DNA of 32,000 nt from Candidatus Heimdallarchaeota archaeon B3_Heim (GTDB taxonomy: Archaea; Asgardarchaeota; Heimdallarchaeia; Hodarchaeales; Hodarchaeaceae), in NCBI GenBank assembly GCA_003144275.1, contig NJBF01000018.1:1-32000 (forward strand), in the 5' to 3' direction. The notes beneath the pieces are model-generated. The model worked only from the letters and a program-made list of their open reading frames with translations, searched no databases and was not told the origin of the DNA. The first letter of the stretch is position 1. Each line of letters begins with the position of its first letter. The position numbers and the translations under genes were made by a program. Of the stretch, positions 6,229 through 14,802 are shown in pieces.

Positions 6229-6406
6229 TTAATCTGCTTTAAGTAACCGATCTTGGACGATGATTGAGTCAGCACAAAGCTCTTGAACTTCTTAATCTCA
6301 TTTCAAGTGGTTGAGTCTCATCAAGGCAATATTTCAAGCTCATTTGAGAGAATTTTTTCTCTAGTTTTTCAACTACAATAGTTTTTCTTGATTGAATTGA
6401 GTACAA
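6229..6406 (-). pseudogene. 3' remnant of a paralog of the 118-aa gene at 11315-11671
   Basis: Translates as ...RKTIVVEKLEKKFSQMSLKYCLDETQPLEMRLRS, then after a +1 frameshift ADSIIVQDRLLKAD*. The intact gene reads ...KRITLVEKLGGRFSQMSLNYFLDETQPIEKRMRSLEAYANSVIVQQRLTNPE*. An exact 16-nt match ATTCTCTCAAATGAGC occurs at 6353-6338 (-) and 11548-11563 (+). There is no start codon and no N-terminal half. Confidence 0.8.
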
Positions 6407-6408
6407 AT

Positions 6409-9234
6409 TTATTCTTTCATCTTTTTCTGTTTTTCAAATAGTCTATCCGTTAGGAAGTTTCCAACACTTTCCAGTTTCTCATCGATCTCTGCTACTTTTG
6501 TTTTAGCATGTTCTTTTTCTGGTTTGGGTACACTGAAGATAGATAGGATTCCCACAATCTGATGATGCTCATCCATAACAGGAAGTAGTGACTCCCCAGT
6601 TATTGAGAAGATACCCCATGCCTCTTTCAGGGTTTGACCGACCTTAAAGGTGTAATTTATAGGAAAGGCTACTTCATAAACTTGAATATTCACTAATTTA
6701 CTTGCTTTTTCCACCAGATTAAATGGTATGAATCCAGAAGGAGATCCATCCTGCGTAATAATCCAAGTCTCTTTCTCAGTCGCATGTAGTTGAATGTCAG
6801 CACAGTACCGATCCCATTCAATCAACTTGAAGTTATCCTGTACAAATTCATTAATTGAATCATTAGCATTTATTATCCCCTCATATTCCGCATTTATCTT
6901 TTCTAAATCAATGTCATGGATCACTGGTAATCTTAGAACCTCAAGTGAATCTTTTGTAACCAACAGAGCAGTAAATGATCTTCCGATTGAACCATTAGCA
7001 TAGAAACCTAAATCTTTCTCTTCATGAATGCAGTGATTATGTCCCACAATAAGTTTTTTGGATGTTAAATTGTGTTTTTCCCTGAAGTTTGATATATATT
7101 GATCGAGAGGTGGTGTGAAGTTCTTCCAGAAATCCTGATCTCCATGTTCTATCCAGATATTTTCATCGTGATAGATTTCTCCTAGAAAATGAATGTCTAA
7201 TTCTCGCTTTAATTTCATACGGAATTGGTCATAGAAACTCTTTGGGTCATGGTTACCCGAGATAATATGAATTCTTTGATCTCCGAGAGAATCTTGAATT
7301 TGGGACAACTCATTAAGAAGAGAAATTCCTTCTTTATCTGTTTCTGAAAGCTCGGCAACGCGATCAATATTGAAAACATCTCCACCAATTAAGATTGATC
7401 GAACATGGTGTTCTTCGCATGCATTTTTGATTTCCGCCAAACAAAGTTTCGCTAATTTGTTATTAAGTCCCCAATGGAGGTCGGAAAATATCAACAGTGG
7501 ATATGCAATCACTGGTTTATCTTCCACCAAGTCTTCAGGGACAAAGGTTTGGAGAATATTTCTGTAAACTTCTTTGATAGTAATTATCAATTCCTTGTTT
7601 ATGCTTTCCACGGCTTCAATAGGCATTTCTGACGTTAACTTGTATTTTGCCATTGAAAAGTTACTATAACCCTGAATAAGTATTCTACCTTGTTCCTCAG
7701 AAATAATATCTCGTTCTACAGCCATTTTAAATCGGTCAATAGTAGTAGAAGTGAAGTTTGTTTCATTTAGTACGGCTAGAACGGTACCTAAATCCTGTAA
7801 TGCAGTGATCACAGAGTATGTCTTGAAAATGGAATCGTATAGAAACGGTTGACAAATTCGTAGATTATCTCCTAAAGCATTATCTTCAGCTTTCAGGGAT
7901 TCAGTAATTTGGAGCAATATTGGGATTATCTTGTGAATTACATTCCTGGTCGAACGGGTAATTTCATTACGTAAAATCCTGCCTTTTCCAATAGGCTTTT
8001 CGTAAATTGGAACCATGTTAATAATAGACTTGTATATGGACCAACAGTATTTGCTAATGCCATTTCTTCGATCTTCAGGAGATATGGAAGTTTTACGGAG
8101 ATTTTCAATAGAGCTTAACATTTCATGAATCGCTGATCTTTGATTAGATTCTAAGAAATTGTCATCCCCGTTTAGAAAAGCGTGTAAAATATTAGGAATC
8201 ATCTCTTCATGAAAATTCAGTTTTTCAACATTCTCTAGTTTGCATAATTCGAGATTGGGCGTGTGTTGTAATACACGATGTAGAGCCTCACCTACTTGTA
8301 GGAATTGTTGATCATTACCCTCATGAATCAAGAGCATATCTAAATCCGAGTTATCAGAATATTCTCCTCTTGCATAACCCCCACATACCCCAATGATGAA
8401 ATTACTTGGAATACCAACCATAGTCTTATGTTCTTTATCAACCTGTAGATATTTATTGAAAACTGTATTTTTTTCTGCAAGGAGTACAGCACTTTCAAAT
8501 AGGATATTTATGCGTGAACTAATCGTTTGGTGAGTTCTTTCGTTCCAAATGGATCCTAAATACGATTCCACTTGCTTCGTATCCCAAGTGAGATAATTGG
8601 TTCTATTTAACTCCCGATAGGAGAGGAAATGTTCCATTCTTGGAGGAAGGGTATACGAAGTGGATTGATATGTAAATTCAGTAATTTTCTCGATTGTACT
8701 CAATATATTTGGCAGTTTGGTAACATTATTATCCATAGGTCCCTTAATCACTACAAGCTCGCTGAAATCAGAAGTTTCTGGATTTCTTCTTAATATAAGG
8801 ATATCATCTTCAAGGTTAATCTCTGTGACATTATTAAACAGATCCCAGTATCCTGATTTAATTATATTCCCTTTTACCAAGTAATTAAGAAGATCAATTG
8901 ACGAATTAATGCTGTGATGCTTATTATGTCGATTATTGGACATTAACGGTTCTTCGGATTTAGTAGAGTTCATTTCGGTTTTAATCATTTCTTTGATTCT
9001 ACGCCGTTCCTGTGCCATAGATTCGAAATCTATCCAATCGTCATTCAGGAAAGAAATTCTCCTCTTAAACAAAATTTCCTCCGGAAGATAGAACATATTC
9101 CCATTTTGTGTTAGTAGAAGACTAATTGCTGGTGTTTCTATTTGCTGAAGATCTTCAAGCGAAGATATTTTCTGCAAAAAACTTTGGTCGGCTAAATAAA
9201 ATTCTAAGGTCCTTAGAGCTGCATCGAAATCCAT
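6409..9234 (-). CDS. Multidomain protein: unknown N-terminus + GlnD/GlnE-like nucleotidyltransferase + helical (DUF294_C-like) domain + calcineurin-like metallophosphoesterase + CBS pair
   Basis: NTase motif CGGYARGEYSDNSDLDML. Helical motif TIDRFKMAVERDIISEEQGRILIQGY. Phosphoesterase motifs SDLH, GGD, GNHD, EHGD and GHNH. CBS motif LPVMDEHHQIVGILS. Start moved to ATG 9234, which follows GGAGG and lies 2 nt after the upstream stop. Confidence 0.85.
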   Translation of the reverse strand: MDFDAALRTLEFYLADQSFLQKISSLEDLQQIETPAISLLLTQNGNMFYLPEEILFKRRISFLNDDWIDFESMAQERRRIKEMIKTEMNSTKSEEPLMSNNRHNKHHSINSSIDLLNYLVKGNIIKSGYWDLFNNVTEINLEDDILILRRNPETSDFSELVVIKGPMDNNVTKLPNILSTIEKITEFTYQSTSYTLPPRMEHFLSYRELNRTNYLTWDTKQVESYLGSIWNERTHQTISSRINILFESAVLLAEKNTVFNKYLQVDKEHKTMVGIPSNFIIGVCGGYARGEYSDNSDLDMLLIHEGNDQQFLQVGEALHRVLQHTPNLELCKLENVEKLNFHEEMIPNILHAFLNGDDNFLESNQRSAIHEMLSSIENLRKTSISPEDRRNGISKYCWSIYKSIINMVPIYEKPIGKGRILRNEITRSTRNVIHKIIPILLQITESLKAEDNALGDNLRICQPFLYDSIFKTYSVITALQDLGTVLAVLNETNFTSTTIDRFKMAVERDIISEEQGRILIQGYSNFSMAKYKLTSEMPIEAVESINKELIITIKEVYRNILQTFVPEDLVEDKPVIAYPLLIFSDLHWGLNNKLAKLCLAEIKNACEEHHVRSILIGGDVFNIDRVAELSETDKEGISLLNELSQIQDSLGDQRIHIISGNHDPKSFYDQFRMKLKRELDIHFLGEIYHDENIWIEHGDQDFWKNFTPPLDQYISNFREKHNLTSKKLIVGHNHCIHEEKDLGFYANGSIGRSFTALLVTKDSLEVLRLPVIHDIDLEKINAEYEGIINANDSINEFVQDNFKLIEWDRYCADIQLHATEKETWIITQDGSPSGFIPFNLVEKASKLVNIQVYEVAFPINYTFKVGQTLKEAWGIFSITGESLLPVMDEHHQIVGILSIFSVPKPEKEHAKTKVAEIDEKLESVGNFLTDRLFEKQKKMKE

Positions 9235-9236
9235 TT

Positions 9237-11213
9237 TCAGCCCTCCATGAGTTGTTGCAATCCCAGTGTCGTAATCCAATCAGTGTTCTCTGATCGCAAG
9301 GTTTCAGCATTTGGCTTGTATTTCAGCTCCTGAAGAGTTTTAAAAGCTTCCATTCGGATGAAAGTTGTTTCTTTTGGATCCAAATAAATCTTGAATATCA
9401 ACTCGGTACCCTTTTTATCAACATCATGTTGTTCAAGAGCTTCTAGTGAGGCCTGTCTGACACGTTCCGCTTTTGATTGATCAACTGCAAGATCTAGAAG
9501 AATTGCGGTGACTTTCGGATTTTGATAAGTCCGTAAATTTCGGACAGCAATTACTCGAATGATGGTCGCAATGGATTTATTCTTAGCGATCATTAGTAGC
9601 AAATCTTCCTCTGTACCTTGTCGTGAAACAAAATCAACAATAGATCGCTTCACAGGATTGGGTAAATCCACAAAATCTTGTGAAGTAGTATACATTTGAG
9701 GTAAGGTACCTGTGAACCATGAAAGAGAGTCGATGGCCCGCCCTCTGAGAAATTGATCATCGTTTTTGTTCTCTGCAACGGTATTAAGGAAAGGAATGAG
9801 TTTACTTCCAACCCGACTAATCAGAATTCTCAGAGCTAGTTCCCGTAGTTGGTAGCTTTGTTTTGAATCTTCAAAAATCTCAAAAAATTTGTTTGCCACA
9901 GGATCGGCAGAAATGACTGGCTTAATGGGAGAAATACCTGCATCAGGGAAATCATTAACTACCTTTTTCCGTAAAAGCTGAATTGGTTCCTTTAATTTGT
10001 ACTCAGGTACCCCTTTGCCAAAAGCCTGGATAGAAATCTTTGAATTTTCAAGAGAAAGTGCTTCAAAAGATATTATCGAATAGTTACGACGAAATTCTTC
10101 CAGGAGACCCGCATTCAGTTGAAATTCATCGATGCCCTCTGATTCAAACCCAACTCGGGAAGAAAAGTGATGTTGTAAATAGTTGAGACAAACCCACTTA
10201 ATGGAGGCAAGTTCATAGGGATTTTCCAGAATATTAGTGATTAATTGATTTATTTTCTCTTCTTTAAGAATAAGGGGTAAATTTCTGATAATCTTAGACC
10301 GTTCATTTTTGGAAATCTTACGGTCGAAGAGTAATTTCCATTCTTCGTACCTTTCATAGCTACCGACATTTCCTATCACAAGTTCTTCGTTTACAGTTGA
10401 AGTCCTGACACCTGAATGGTTTTTTATTAATTCATAGAGTTTAATCATGTCTTCAAGATCCGTAGATTCATCAAGCTCATTGTTGATTATTTCTTGTTTT
10501 GTTAACATCTCATCGGAGTTATCTATAATTTGGAGAAAAGAGTGAAAGGTGTCAATGATGGGATTGTCTGAAAATTTCTGTTTAATGTTGAAGAATCTGA
10601 AGGAACACTTATTACATCCTGCTGCTATCGTTTCCTCTCTCTCAAATCTCACCCATTTAGCAATATTATCGGCGATAAGTGAATCATATTCACACATAAT
10701 AGGCCCTAAATCCTCCCGTCCAAAGAGTTGGAATACTTCTTGGTAAAGACAGCGGTTGATATCAAAAGCAAATTCTTCTTTAGTTGCGGTAACTTCTTTT
10801 AGCTGGAAATATTCGTTATCGTAGATTTTTTGATTACCTTTTCGGGTATCCTCTACAAATGTGGCCCAAGGATCTTTCGAAGACGCCATAAATCGCCGTT
10901 GAGGTTCTAAAACCATTTCTTCAAGCATTGTTTTGTAAATAGCAAGGACTAATCTAGTAACAATAGTTACATCTTTTTGACCCTGCTTACCAGGAAGGGC
11001 TTCTTCCAAAGCGATCACAAAAACAGGATTGATTCCATAAAAAAGTTGTGTTTCATTGAAATTCTCTTCTAACTTCAATTTTTCATGAAGTTCACTAAAG
11101 CGTTGTGAAAACGAAGAAAGTACTTCTTTGGCTTCTTCAGGGTCAAAAGATCTTTCTAATTCTTTAGAGGTCAATATAATGAAATACTGAAACATCTGAT
11201 CCATTTGAGACAT
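9237..11213 (-). CDS. ATC-hydrolase-like (V4R-related) domain fused to HEAT-like repeats
   Basis: The N-terminal ~210 aa contain FAFDINRCLYQEVF...IMCEYD...FEREETIAAGCNKCSFRF, typical of the L-2-amino-thiazoline-4-carboxylate hydrolase-like domain. The C-terminus has repeated helical units (LRELALRIL, LRGRAIDSL, IRVIAVRNL, VRQASLEAL, IRMEAFKTL). Confidence 0.75.
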   Translation of the reverse strand: MSQMDQMFQYFIILTSKELERSFDPEEAKEVLSSFSQRFSELHEKLKLEENFNETQLFYGINPVFVIALEEALPGKQGQKDVTIVTRLVLAIYKTMLEEMVLEPQRRFMASSKDPWATFVEDTRKGNQKIYDNEYFQLKEVTATKEEFAFDINRCLYQEVFQLFGREDLGPIMCEYDSLIADNIAKWVRFEREETIAAGCNKCSFRFFNIKQKFSDNPIIDTFHSFLQIIDNSDEMLTKQEIINNELDESTDLEDMIKLYELIKNHSGVRTSTVNEELVIGNVGSYERYEEWKLLFDRKISKNERSKIIRNLPLILKEEKINQLITNILENPYELASIKWVCLNYLQHHFSSRVGFESEGIDEFQLNAGLLEEFRRNYSIISFEALSLENSKISIQAFGKGVPEYKLKEPIQLLRKKVVNDFPDAGISPIKPVISADPVANKFFEIFEDSKQSYQLRELALRILISRVGSKLIPFLNTVAENKNDDQFLRGRAIDSLSWFTGTLPQMYTTSQDFVDLPNPVKRSIVDFVSRQGTEEDLLLMIAKNKSIATIIRVIAVRNLRTYQNPKVTAILLDLAVDQSKAERVRQASLEALEQHDVDKKGTELIFKIYLDPKETTFIRMEAFKTLQELKYKPNAETLRSENTDWITTLGLQQLMEG

Positions 11214-11314: not shown

Positions 11315-11671
11315 ATGAGTAATCCTCAACGAAGAACTTCTCGATCTATGTTGGCACGTGCAAAAGCGATTTTTAAGATAATCAATTATATGGATGAACC
11401 ATTTGCTAAAACGAAATTAACAGATGCAAATATAAGTCCAAAGGCCGCAGAAAATTGGCTAGATCTGATAGTTTTTATCCAAAACCAACCAAAAATACGA
11501 GTAACTAAAACAAAACGCATTACATTGGTCGAGAAATTAGGTGGAAGATTCTCTCAAATGAGCCTCAACTACTTTTTAGATGAAACTCAACCAATTGAGA
11601 AAAGAATGAGAAGTTTGGAAGCTTACGCTAATTCCGTAATAGTCCAACAGCGTTTAACTAATCCAGAATAA
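11315..11671 (+). CDS. Small basic protein, probable winged-helix-like DNA-binding protein
   Basis: 118 aa and basic. A helix-turn-helix-like segment (KTKLTDANISPKAAENWLDLI) is followed by a beta hairpin (KIRVTKTKRITLVEK). Transcribed divergently from the cassette. The paralogous remnant at 6229-6406 supports that it is coding. Confidence 0.65.
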   Translation: MSNPQRRTSRSMLARAKAIFKIINYMDEPFAKTKLTDANISPKAAENWLDLIVFIQNQPKIRVTKTKRITLVEKLGGRFSQMSLNYFLDETQPIEKRMRSLEAYANSVIVQQRLTNPE

Positions 11672-11722: not shown

Positions 11723-12013
11723 TCAGATTTCTATACCTATTCGCACATCTTTGGCATTCTTCCATAGTTCGTTGAATCTAGCTCTTAATTCGTTAGCAAA
11801 ACGCTTTTGCCACACATAGATCGCCGCGAAATACTCCGTGGGGTTAATGGGGTTTGGAACTTTAAGAAAAACTTTTTCTCCATAGATAATATCAAAGCCT
11901 GCAGTGTCAGGAACTCTGATTACATCAATCATGGCATGAAATAAGCCACCTAAACTTCCTCTTGACCCCATTGATCGAATAAATAGTTCTGGATCGGTAC
12001 TGAGTCCATCCAT
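11723..12013 (-). pseudogene. C-terminal fragment of a TrmB-like regulator (effector/PLD-like domain)
   Basis: FDIIYGEKVFLKVPNPINPTEYFAAIYVWQKRFANELRARFNELWKNAK resembles the end of TrmB-type effector domains. There is no HTH and no room for one upstream. Confidence 0.45.
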
Positions 12014-12064: not shown

Positions 12065-12967
12065 CTATTCCGTTGGGGGAAAAATTAATGCATTAGTATT
12101 TTGTAAGCAGAGCGAAGCAGTTATTATTTCAGCATCATTTTCGATTTTCGTCATTGCTTGAAACACTATGAGAGAATCAGGTTCTTTTTCTACAATAGCA
12201 CAGAAATCTTTCAGGTAAATTGGGCCTTGATTGAGCCGTAATTCTATTTTTCTATTATCTTCTTCAAGTCTCTCCTTGATTATGTTGAAGAAAATCTCCA
12301 TTCGTTTCAACTCCTTTTCTTCAACTAAACTCGAATAAAAGACATCGATTTGCGCATTATCTTCGATCAGAGCGATTAACCATCCAAGAAAATCATTCTG
12401 GAAAATTGAACTTCTTATTAACACCTTAATATCTTTAACAGGTGTTTTTTGGGCTTTTAATACCAAATAAATCGGAATTCTCCCCTTGAGAAGATGTTCT
12501 GTTATGACTTGATCTACTGTCGTCCCTATGCTAATCATTTCTTGTTTTTCTTCTTGAGCAAATAACGTGAAAGGGGCTGGAATCACTATTAAATCTATTC
12601 TTCTTTTTTGGATGATTTCCTGCATCCGGTTAAAAGGTGTTTCTTTGTCATCAGGAATAAGAGCCACATTAAATAATTCTTTTTCGCCTGAGAACCTTTT
12701 TTTAATTCTAGTTATTAATTCAGGAAGTGTTTCAAGATCAATATTCGCAGCTTTTGCTTGAGACCGATATCCGCGAACAGCTAGAAGGAAAATGAAGCTT
12801 GCATTCGTCCTTTCATTCAACTGTTCAACTAAATTGAAAATAAAATCCTCCCGATCTTTAGTTTCATCAAGAACTAATAGAATGTTCTTGATATCTGTTT
12901 CATCGGAAATCTTGGATTTTTTAAAGATTTCTTGGAATTTCTTGATTGAGTTTTCAAAGTCATCCAT
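12065..12967 (-). CDS. Universal stress protein (USP)-like, probably tandem domains
   Basis: NILLVLD, IDLIVIPAP, SIGTTVDQV and RIPIYLV match the USP pattern. Start moved to ATG 12967, which follows AGAGGA. Downstream of an ArsB/NhaD permease, a common pairing. Confidence 0.7.
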   Translation of the reverse strand: MDDFENSIKKFQEIFKKSKISDETDIKNILLVLDETKDREDFIFNLVEQLNERTNASFIFLLAVRGYRSQAKAANIDLETLPELITRIKKRFSGEKELFNVALIPDDKETPFNRMQEIIQKRRIDLIVIPAPFTLFAQEEKQEMISIGTTVDQVITEHLLKGRIPIYLVLKAQKTPVKDIKVLIRSSIFQNDFLGWLIALIEDNAQIDVFYSSLVEEKELKRMEIFFNIIKERLEEDNRKIELRLNQGPIYLKDFCAIVEKEPDSLIVFQAMTKIENDAEIITASLCLQNTNALIFPPTE

Positions 12968-12986
12968 TTTTGTTCCTCTTTTGCCC

Positions 12987-14324
12987 TTAAATTGAAAGTA
13001 ACCATAAACCAATAATGTAAAAGGATCCAATAAGTAATTGTAAAAAAGATGTTATGCCTCCATATTTCACAAATTCCAAGAATGTAACTCTAAATTGTGG
13101 ATTATCTAGACGGTTTAGTGAAGATACTGCTTGAACGGTTGAAGCTGACCCGATTGGTGTCATATTTCCACCCAAATTCGTCCCAATAACGACAGATACT
13201 AAAAGCGGGTTAAAGTGAAGAGCAGGATAATCCTCTAATAATGTATCCATAACATTAGTCATGACAGAAGCCACAGGAATGTTGTCTAATACGGCTGATG
13301 CTAGAGCATTGATCCATTGCAGAGCGATAATCCCTCCTAGAAGATTTATTTCGCAGAAGACTTCAATTGGTGCAGCTAGAATTTCCAAGATACCAACTTT
13401 CTCAGCAACGCCCACAACTGTGAGAAGACCGATCATAAAAAAAACTAAAGACCATTCAACTTTTTCTAAAGCTTGATCCACACTTTCACCAATGAGTCCA
13501 AGCATAACAAAACCACCTGCGATCGCAATATACCCTAATTCAATCTTAAAAGGTAAGAATGATGCGATTGCAAAACTAAATATCGTCAGAATTAGTACAA
13601 TGATCGCGATATTAAAATCCCTCTGATTATTTACAACCGTTTTTTCATTAATAAGAAGAATTTCTTCATAGTTTCTTCTAGATATCTTTTTCGAAAAATC
13701 TTTTCTAAACAGAAAAACCCAAAATATGTATGTTAGAATCCCAGTAATGAACACAAAGGGAGCTGTTAAAATAAAGAACTCAACAAAACCTATATCGAAA
13801 TGACCGCCAATAATGAGATTCGGAGGGGATGCTATGCGAGTCATTGTTCCTCCAAGATCGGCAAAAATTGCTTCTCCTAAGATAAAGGGTTTTGGATTAA
13901 TGTTTAGGGCCTCACATCCAACTATCGTGATTGATCCGATTAGTAATATTGCCATATATGCATCTAGCAATGCAGAAAAGATTAATGTTAAAACACATAG
14001 CGCAAATAGTAGTTTATATTGATTGTCTCCACTTTTTTTTAATACAACTATTGCTATATAGTCAAATATTCCTGTTGTTCTTGCAACTCCAACCATGAGA
14101 GTAATACCAATAATTACTAATAGTAGATCAACTTCTAAGAGCTCAAGTAGATGTTCTACATCAGGGATTAGAACCTCACCGTAACTATCAGGGATTATTG
14201 CGATAAGTAAAGCAAATCCAGCACCCATCATTGCTGCTAATGTTTTATGAACACGCTCAGAAATGATTAATAGAAGGGTTAAGGCGAAGATAAGAATTAT
14301 AAGCAATTCTGGTACTGAAACCAT
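12987..14324 (-). CDS. ArsB/NhaD (IT superfamily) anion or cation permease
   Basis: HKTLAAMMGA, SALLDA, ADLGGTMTRIASPPNLII, SAVLDNIP and GTNLGGNMTPIGSASTV are hallmarks of the family. Start moved to ATG 14324, which follows GGTGA. Confidence 0.9.
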   Translation of the reverse strand: MVSVPELLIILIFALTLLLIISERVHKTLAAMMGAGFALLIAIIPDSYGEVLIPDVEHLLELLEVDLLLVIIGITLMVGVARTTGIFDYIAIVVLKKSGDNQYKLLFALCVLTLIFSALLDAYMAILLIGSITIVGCEALNINPKPFILGEAIFADLGGTMTRIASPPNLIIGGHFDIGFVEFFILTAPFVFITGILTYIFWVFLFRKDFSKKISRRNYEEILLINEKTVVNNQRDFNIAIIVLILTIFSFAIASFLPFKIELGYIAIAGGFVMLGLIGESVDQALEKVEWSLVFFMIGLLTVVGVAEKVGILEILAAPIEVFCEINLLGGIIALQWINALASAVLDNIPVASVMTNVMDTLLEDYPALHFNPLLVSVVIGTNLGGNMTPIGSASTVQAVSSLNRLDNPQFRVTFLEFVKYGGITSFLQLLIGSFYIIGLWLLSI

Positions 14325-14802
14325 ATTTATTTCACCAAATTTCGATATCTTATTTCTCAAAATATTCATTCAATGTTTTGGATTAGTGGGACGAGTCTTT
14401 AATACGAAGAGTTTGGAGAGTGATCAAACCCTATTCATTTAAATCAAGGTGTGTATAATTTTCTTTAAAAACATTCAGAATTGACAATCTTTTGTAGTCA
14501 ACGATATTTACTTACTTAAATTACCTTAACTTGCCTTAATCTGAAGGGATATGTAACAATGAACCTTCTTAGAGCTGTAGAAAAGAGGCCGTTCCTATTA
14601 ATTATACTTAATACTCGGGATATAATAAGTTGAAACATTGTATCAGGGGTAAAACCTAATTCATTAAACAAGACTGAATCAATCTAAAATGAGTTATTTG
14701 GAAACTTAATTAGCTGGTTAATATTGAAAAAACCATCTTGTACATATCATCAACAGTGAAGTAAAAAAAGGTGCTATGTTAGTTTACCATGGAGGAGAAA
14801 AA

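Follow-up and report, generated by a model that had tools for sequence, protein, structure and literature searches.

Nucleotidyltransferases (NTases) with the fold of GlnE, GlnD, and DrrA are the classic writers of protein nucleotidylation, and to our knowledge all characterised enzymes of this fold (GlnE, GlnD, and DrrA) put AMP or UMP on a protein tyrosine. GlnD unites such an NTase writer in one chain with a helical domain, with an HD domain as hydrolase, and with ACT domains as sensors. A further group is formed by the DUF294/COG2905 sensor NTases, which occur as cNMP-CBS-DUF294-DUF294_C and as Cache/PAS-DUF294 proteins. The literature on DUF294, COG2905, and PA3233 yielded only genetic evidence and no biochemical characterisation; this evidence is the cofitness of COG2905 mutants and a DUF4212 symporter (10.1101/072470). 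Here, a relative of these enzymes is described from the Asgard archaeon Candidatus Heimdallarchaeota archaeon B3_Heim, a member of the Hodarchaeales. The analysed stretch of DNA, in the following called the window, comprises 32,000 nucleotides (contig NJBF01000018.1, positions 1 to 32,000). The enzyme gene (6409..9234, minus strand) encodes 941 amino acids plus stop, comprising an N-domain, a GlnE-like NTase, a HEPN-like helical domain, a metallophosphoesterase, a probable CBS pair, and a C-terminal helix. It is paired with a gene for a HEAT-repeat protein, and the two products are tentatively proposed to form a switch for reversible nucleotidylation.

The NTase core spans residues 205-415 (7990..8622, minus strand) and is followed by the HEPN-like helical 'substrate-binding' domain of the KNTase_C clan (residues 416-570; 7525..7989, minus strand). 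Since the full-length AlphaFold model is poor (pLDDT 63, with the NTase core and the CBS part below 50), only a model of residues 205-570, folded alone with a 32-row alignment, was used for claims about the fold (pLDDT 88, pTM 0.87). In VIA-align, NTase core and helical domain together matched the adenylylation domain of GlnE (3k7d_B; Z 16.9, 280 residues aligned), DrrA (6yx5_B; Z 16.2, 282 residues), and the N-domain of GlnE (1v4a_A; Z 15.2, 282 residues). The next rows were HEPN and NTase substrate-binding domains, which covered the helical half only (Z 8.6-11.8). Foldseek returned the same three structures with E-values of 3.5e-5 to 4.3e-4 and a probability of 1.00, followed by kanamycin, streptomycin, and spectinomycin NTases (E 0.0075-0.6). 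In the catalytic motif G285-G286 ... D297-x-D299 (GGYARGEYSDNSDLD; residues 285-299, 8338..8382, minus strand), G285, G286, R289, E291, S296, D297, L298, and D299 are invariant in 32/32 family members, the two most divergent lineages included. The G-G ... DxD arrangement is shared with GlnE and DrrA, and so are two further elements that we take to be GlnE/GlnD signatures, namely R-x-E in the stretch from G-G to DxD and H-[DE] beyond the DxD strand. Going by how the strands are ordered in the model, the candidates for the third catalytic carboxylate are E329 (D/E in 31/32 sequences), which lies on the strand that follows helix 308-322, and E334 (E in 31/32). The initial annotation, which was made from the sequence alone, had proposed a GlnD/GlnE-class NTase with an intact DxD and a downstream helical domain. 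The invariant motif and the fold match bear this out, and the region models as a Pol-beta-like fold.

In sequence, the enzyme differs from GlnE and DrrA: identity is 12-14%, and no Pfam model for GlnE or GlnD is matched at threshold. Curated thresholds of Pfam DUF294, DUF294_C, and GlnD_UR_UTase (PF08335) are not reached by the window's enzyme, and single-sequence scans of the libraries gave only motif-level matches to NTP_transf_2 and Polbeta and very weak ones to GlnD. The NCBIfam models of GlnD weakly match residues ~289-329 of the 956-aa open reading frame (274-314 of the 941-aa protein), scoring 16.6-19.7 bits against cut-offs of 519-631. Across the family, NTP_transf_2 matches 27 of 30 members (best E 4e-6), Pfam DUF294 (PF03445) one of 30 (E 8.5e-4), and DUF294_C (PF10335) three of 30 (E 8.2e-3). 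A search of the host genome with PF03445 found nothing. Shape and language-model features point to the same relatives. The nearest ESM Atlas shapes (TM 0.56-0.63) are CBS-DUF294-DUF294_C proteins, a cluster combining CBS, RNase_T, and DUF294, Cache-DUF294 proteins, and GlnD (TM 0.56-0.59), and the closest clusters by features are DUF294, DUF294_C, and GlnD_UR_UTase (0.84-0.92); the DUF294/COG2905 sensor NTases are the best matches by both measures. Judged from the modelled domain, the NTase belongs to the GlnD/GlnE/DrrA/DUF294 type at the level of fold and clade.

Comparison of the whole chain with the described systems shows likeness in plan and differences in parts. In GlnD and the Asgard enzyme alike, a single chain unites NTase and helical domain with a hydrolase and with domains that sense ligands. 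In GlnD, however, the hydrolase is an HD domain and the sensor is ACT, whereas the Asgard enzyme has a metallophosphoesterase and a CBS pair, and neither HD nor ACT was matched in it by Pfam or NCBIfam. GlnE removes AMP by means of a second NTase-fold domain, in the place of which the Asgard enzyme has the fused metallophosphoesterase; the N-domain, the CBS pair, and the HEAT-repeat partner are absent from GlnE and DrrA. The DUF294 sensor NTases resemble the Asgard enzyme in having CBS sensors on the same chain and a phosphodiesterase that is fused or paired. Their hydrolase can be RNase T-like, as seen in the RNase_T fusion of the Atlas cluster and in a COG2905 protein annotated as an RNase T domain protein. 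The order of the domains is reversed, the CBS pair of the Asgard enzyme being C-terminal after the hydrolase, and the HEAT-repeat partner and the unique N-domain set the Asgard family apart. A search of 201 Asgard genomes turned up canonical DUF294 in only 2, and the family is therefore an isolated and strongly diverged archaeal branch.

A further point of comparison is the MntA-HepT system, in which the minimal NTase MntA poly-AMPylates a HEPN toxin (PMC7641770). In both systems, an NTase works with a HEPN-fold domain, and the helical domain of the Asgard enzyme matches HEPN structures with Z 10.4-11.8. However, this domain is fused in the Asgard enzyme, and there is no toxin-antitoxin layout. 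According to a published survey, the HEPN-like domains of this clade lack the RNase motif and form the C-terminal part of those GlnD/E-like NTases by which glutamine synthetase is modified (PMC3710099). Searches of the literature for combinations of NTase, metallophosphoesterase, CBS, and Asgard did not find the exact architecture with its HEAT partner described, nor a characterised family with the layout of the enzyme. The initial annotation had known of no described protein with this architecture, which holds to this extent, but the layout is less isolated than it had appeared, because the Atlas clusters with CBS + RNase_T + DUF294 and with Cache/PAS-DUF294 show that the theme of sensor, DUF294-type NTase, and phosphodiesterase is already present in databases. 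The fused Asgard layout is a new form of a widespread and biochemically unstudied class of sensor-gated NTases.

The second catalytic domain is a calcineurin-like metallophosphoesterase (residues 578-770; 6925..7503, minus strand) assigned from five metal motifs and from Metallophos_2 and Metallophos, which match 28 and 22 of 30 family members, respectively. The motifs D585xH587, G618D619, G660N661H662D663, H697, and G731H732xH734 span 7033-7482 of the window, and their residues are invariant in 32 sequences except for H734, which is kept in at least 90%. All five motifs had already been recognised in the initial annotation. Structural neighbours of the domain are LpxH, Mre11/SbcD, and small uncharacterised phosphoesterases, with Foldseek probabilities of 0.9-1.0 for LpxH and Mre11. 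The best NCBIfam match is SbcD (E 1e-7), which at 32 bits stays under the family cut-off of 77.65, and no SbcC/Rad50 gene is present in the cassette; the domain was thus not assigned to the Mre11/SbcD nucleases. Profile searches against the PDB gave weak matches only, so that no phosphoesterase subfamily can be named, and residues 571-941 (phosphoesterase and CBS) had no usable Atlas match by features.

The C-terminal part carries a probable, divergent CBS pair (residues ~790-905; 6520..6867, minus strand), which is the weakest of the domain calls. A profile of the C-terminal 171 residues gave 11 matches in the PDB, seven of which are CBS-domain structures (best six E 0.003-0.03), and the match to 2ef7 (E 0.007) covers both CBS motifs. 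Alignment of the same profile by hhalign to seven CBS pairs of the host genome covered one motif with a probability of 7%, and the structural model of this part is poor. The CBS pair of the initial annotation therefore stands as probable on the profile matches, while Pfam stays below its cut-off. It is followed by a conserved PKPEKEH linker and a conserved C-terminal helix (residues 919-941; 6412..6480, minus strand).

At the other end of the protein, residues 1-204 (8623..9234, minus strand) form a family-specific N-terminal domain that is retained in the split form P0052 (see below). It had no match in Pfam or NCBIfam and no usable match in the ESM Atlas, and in a VIA search with the whole enzyme model the matches listed were taken up by the helical domain. 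This absence of matches does not demonstrate a new fold. The first ~280 residues had been annotated as unrecognised, which applies to residues 1-204 but not to residues 205-280, which are part of the GlnE-like module. The gene lies in a single, uninterrupted open reading frame (6409..9279, minus strand). Its start is almost certainly the ATG at 9234, giving 941 amino acids, because the identical database protein P0003 and most homologues begin there and a GGAGGG motif lies upstream.

A word-indexed search found 45 relatives with 49-90% identity, mostly of full length (912-960 aa). Nearly all named relatives are labelled Hodarchaeales, Hodarchaeota, Heimdallarchaeota, Kariarchaeaceae, or Promethearchaeota, while a single record carries the label Thorarchaeota. 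When 1.84 billion representatives were searched exhaustively by HMM, only 15 proteins came up at E <= 0.001, namely two full-length 50% clusters, fragments, one protein of 533 aa, and one of 376 aa. The latter two reflect a natural split form in a deeper lineage, in which adjoining and overlapping genes encode the N-domain, NTase, and helical domain (533 aa) and the metallophosphoesterase and CBS pair (376 aa). This gene pair was seen on three independent assemblies and in genome G038. The three modules of the enzyme are thus separable and yet are kept together even where the gene is split. A chimera or misassembly, which had been raised as a possibility for the window, was rejected on account of the relatives in multiple genomes and the split form on independent assemblies.

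Among 83 genomes of the class, the enzyme gene is present in 12 of the 21 genomes of the window's genus-level group, in one genome of another family, which has the split form, and in none of the others. Several relatives with 94-99% completeness lack it. In genome G058, only the C-terminal ~165 codons of the gene are left (contig C127, 2970-3467), interrupted by two in-frame TAA stops, and the partner gene is missing; the cassette appears to be decaying there. From the family search and this pattern of presence and absence, it follows that the enzyme gene is real, lineage-restricted, and dispensable.

The stop codon of the partner gene (9237..11213, minus strand; 658 aa) lies 2 nt before the ATG of the enzyme gene. 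The protein consists of an ATC_hydrolase-like N-domain, in which C155, C174, and C203 are invariant, an unassigned middle part, and C-terminal HEAT repeats (HEAT_2, E 4.8e-8, 33.6 bits against a cut-off of 27.7; PDB profile matches to alphaRep and HEAT proteins). The middle third (~208-430) is strongly conserved, with W292, R305, E334, K339, W340, and Q347 among the invariant residues, and has no family or structure match. A gene for an ATC_hydrolase-like and HEAT protein of ~575-680 aa precedes the enzyme gene in 8/8 loci read for the cassette (L001-L003, L007, L010-L012, and the window). Six of these have a spacer of 2 nt and L007 has one of 5 nt; in L001, the gene caller chose an earlier, overlapping start. 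In 22 related genomes, partner and enzyme genes are both present in 12 and both absent in nine, so that 21 of 22 agree, and the sole exception is the genome with the decayed enzyme fragment. As these genomes are not independent of each other, this strict pairing shows joint gain and loss and is not a statistical result. In the split lineage, where the genes overlap, the upstream gene encodes 288 aa that align with the HEAT part of the partner only (hhalign probability 94.8%, E 5e-8), which identifies the HEAT module as the constant companion of the enzyme.

Contact between both proteins was predicted for the partner's HEAT part (430-658) and enzyme residues 1-570 with custom alignments and three controls. 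The complex scored 0.84, 0.79, and 0.84, compared to 0.18 for the best control. In a benchmark, 58 of 80 solved complexes and two of 110 mismatched pairs reach this mark, a calibration that is rough here since custom alignments were used. The runs share at least 93% of contacts, with a pLDDT of at least 85 for the partner. According to the model, enzyme residues 186-244 and 414-419 touch residues 487-654 of the partner. The 658-aa protein, to which the initial annotation had pointed as a neighbour, is thus an obligate and probably physically bound partner of the enzyme.

Based on these properties, the enzyme may be the catalytic subunit of a two-protein switch that is carried by some Hodarchaeales only, and a sensor-gated, reversible nucleotidylation by a heterodimer with the HEAT/Cys-domain protein is the reading we tentatively prefer, at somewhat less than even confidence. 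By analogy with the characterised enzymes of the fold, the NTase would use an NTP to attach NMP to a hydroxyl group, most probably one on a protein. The fused two-metal phosphoesterase would hydrolyse the resulting phosphodiester and thereby reset the mark. The C-terminal CBS pair would probably bind an adenosine-containing ligand and set the balance of the two activities; the idea of the initial annotation that reversible nucleotidylation is gated by energy charge is plausible. The co-translated partner is predicted to dock via its HEAT repeats on the segment joining N-domain and NTase, and might use its Cys-bearing ATC_hydrolase-like domain to deliver the substrate or to contribute another input. 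The scheme builds on what the analysis shows, namely which domains are present, that their catalytic motifs are intact and conserved, that the gene is naturally split in one lineage, and that the two genes are strictly paired; the class of substrate, the ligand, and the direction of control are inferred.

Several observations weigh against such a switch. The two candidates for the third catalytic carboxylate, E329 and E334, are each altered in the split form P0052. The Pfam CBS model matches the second motif only, with 14.2 bits for the protein and 18.3 bits in a genome scan (6538-6651), both under the cut-off of 24. The phosphoesterase is most like Mre11/SbcD and LpxH and not most like a known protein de-nucleotidylase. 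The residues of the predicted interface are not enriched in conservation (hypergeometric p 0.46 and 0.095), and conservation hence lends no independent support to the contact. The contact also lies away from the active site, so that the partner looks like a regulatory or adaptor subunit and not like a docked substrate. In the loci examined, no conserved neighbouring gene hints at a substrate. PII, which had been suggested as one in the initial annotation, is improbable in this role, since a search that matched in 13 of 14 control genomes did not find a PII gene in the host genome, which is 94% complete. Furthermore, enzymes of the RNase T class are known for acting on 3' ends of nucleic acids rather than on protein-NMP bonds, and the RNase T-type hydrolase of the bacterial relatives thus favours a nucleotide or oligonucleotide product; by this analogy, such a product would suit at least as well as a modified protein.

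This last point leads to an alternative that the initial annotation had also offered. The product of the NTase would be a messenger in the form of a linear or cyclic (oligo)nucleotide, the fused phosphoesterase would degrade it, and the CBS pair and the partner would serve as sensors of the input. The hydrolases of the relatives are phosphodiesterases of the nucleic-acid type, both in the RNase_T fusion and in the COG2905 protein with its RNase T domain, and the Asgard phosphoesterase has its nearest folds in Mre11/SbcD and LpxH. By contrast, the closest folds of the NTase itself, GlnE and DrrA, modify proteins, the cassette has no conserved gene for an effector or receptor at the loci examined, and the HEPN-like domain is one described for NTases that modify glutamine synthetase (PMC3710099). 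A nucleotide-signal synthase/hydrolase is regarded as unlikely.

If the enzyme served to process or repair nucleic-acid ends, the NTase would add tails to 3' ends of RNA or DNA, and the phosphoesterase would trim ends or open 2',3'-cyclic phosphates. Such a combination has parallels in healing enzymes of the Pnkp type and in those CCA-adding enzymes that possess a hydrolase domain. It is consistent with the structural matches of the phosphoesterase to Mre11 and SbcD, with SbcD being the best NCBIfam match even if far under its cut-off, and with motif-level structure matches of the NTase to Pol beta and minimal NTases. However, over the whole domain the fold matches GlnE, DrrA, and DUF294 and not polymerases or CCA enzymes, the cassette contains no Rad50/SbcC, ligase, kinase, or helicase gene, and CBS and HEAT partners are atypical of repair nucleases, which makes a role in end processing rather improbable.

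The enzyme could also nucleotidylylate a small molecule, as aminoglycoside- or metabolite-modifying NTases do, with the phosphoesterase recycling the adduct. The aminoglycoside NTases are the next-best structures in Foldseek, the ATC_hydrolase domain of the partner is enzyme-like or ligand-binding, and in one lineage (L007) the operon also encodes an amidohydrolase and an ASKHA-type protein. These structural matches are, however, much weaker than those to GlnE and DrrA, the additional metabolic genes are found in that lineage only, and the flanking genes vary among loci, so that we give this alternative very little credence. Least probable of all, with a small chance of being true, is an Asgard-specific system of reversible AMPylation or UMPylation in which a DrrA-like writer and a metallophosphoesterase as an eraser of a new kind would act on eukaryote-like signalling proteins, such as the many small GTPases of Ras/Arf type in Hodarchaeales, presented by the HEAT partner.

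Apart from the gene pair, the cassette includes a small divergent gene (11315..11671, plus strand; 118 aa) that is conserved with it. Homologues of 114-130 aa lie at the same place in L001-L003, L007, L011, and L012, and the gene is kept even in the deep L007 lineage. Nothing significant was found for the protein in Pfam or the PDB; from its sequence, it is possibly a winged-helix regulator. Just downstream of the enzyme gene, a second copy has left its 3' half as a decayed and frameshifted remnant (6229..6400, minus strand). Translated in two pieces from different frames, the remnant yields the C-terminal half that is conserved among the small proteins. The remnant is inverted relative to the intact small gene and resembles the orthologues of L002 and L003 more than the window's intact copy. 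It may be the trace of an old rearrangement or of a replacement of the cassette. In L007 (943-4233), two additional operon genes lie between the small gene and the HEAT partner. One encodes a 768-aa fusion of an ATC_hydrolase-like domain with EutA/Ppx-GppA (ASKHA) and the other an Amidohydro_2 protein, so that this operon has the Cys-bearing ATC_hydrolase-like domain in two places.

The genes flanking the cassette vary among loci. A gene for a CitMHS transporter (12987-14369) lies 1.8 kb away in the window and 6.7 kb away in L002 and is absent from the other loci; since it is near the cassette in these two only, linkage to a carboxylate transporter was rejected as a conserved feature. Genes for small GTPases (Arf/Ras/Roc-type) adjoin the cassette in two of nine loci (L010, 4857-5432; L012, 2752-3270). 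As a clue to the substrate, this neighbourhood is probably due to chance, because the host genome has at least 46 Ras-like genes. One locus, L012, has two further genes at no more than 6 kb from the cassette, one for a Lactamase_B protein that weakly matches the anti-Pycsar protein Apyc1 and one for a SAVED-domain protein (388-1188 and 12651-13757); Apyc1-type and SAVED families deal with cyclic-nucleotide signals. In the window, a 96-aa open reading frame (11723-12013, minus strand) matches a MeaB-type GTPase and DUF7436 in fragments only and may therefore be a truncated gene. A 321-aa open reading frame without a family match (12065-13030, minus strand) overlaps the start region of the CitMHS gene. 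The G+C content of the window is 32-40%, and neither tRNA genes nor Rfam families were found in it. A scan for promoters and terminators of the bacterial type, which is unsuited to archaea, returned nothing exceeding shuffled sequences.

The Hodarchaeales are the archaea placed closest to eukaryotes in the literature. As the gene pair is accessory and present in about half of the related genomes, it informs on lineage-specific regulation and not on a core ancestral trait. If the proposed switch is true, a metallophosphoesterase would for the first time be found in the role of reset enzyme in a system of this kind. With a writer, a candidate eraser, and a sensor in one soluble chain, with only one, obligate partner, and with module boundaries that can be read from the natural split form, the Asgard enzyme offers a compact system to probe the whole class.

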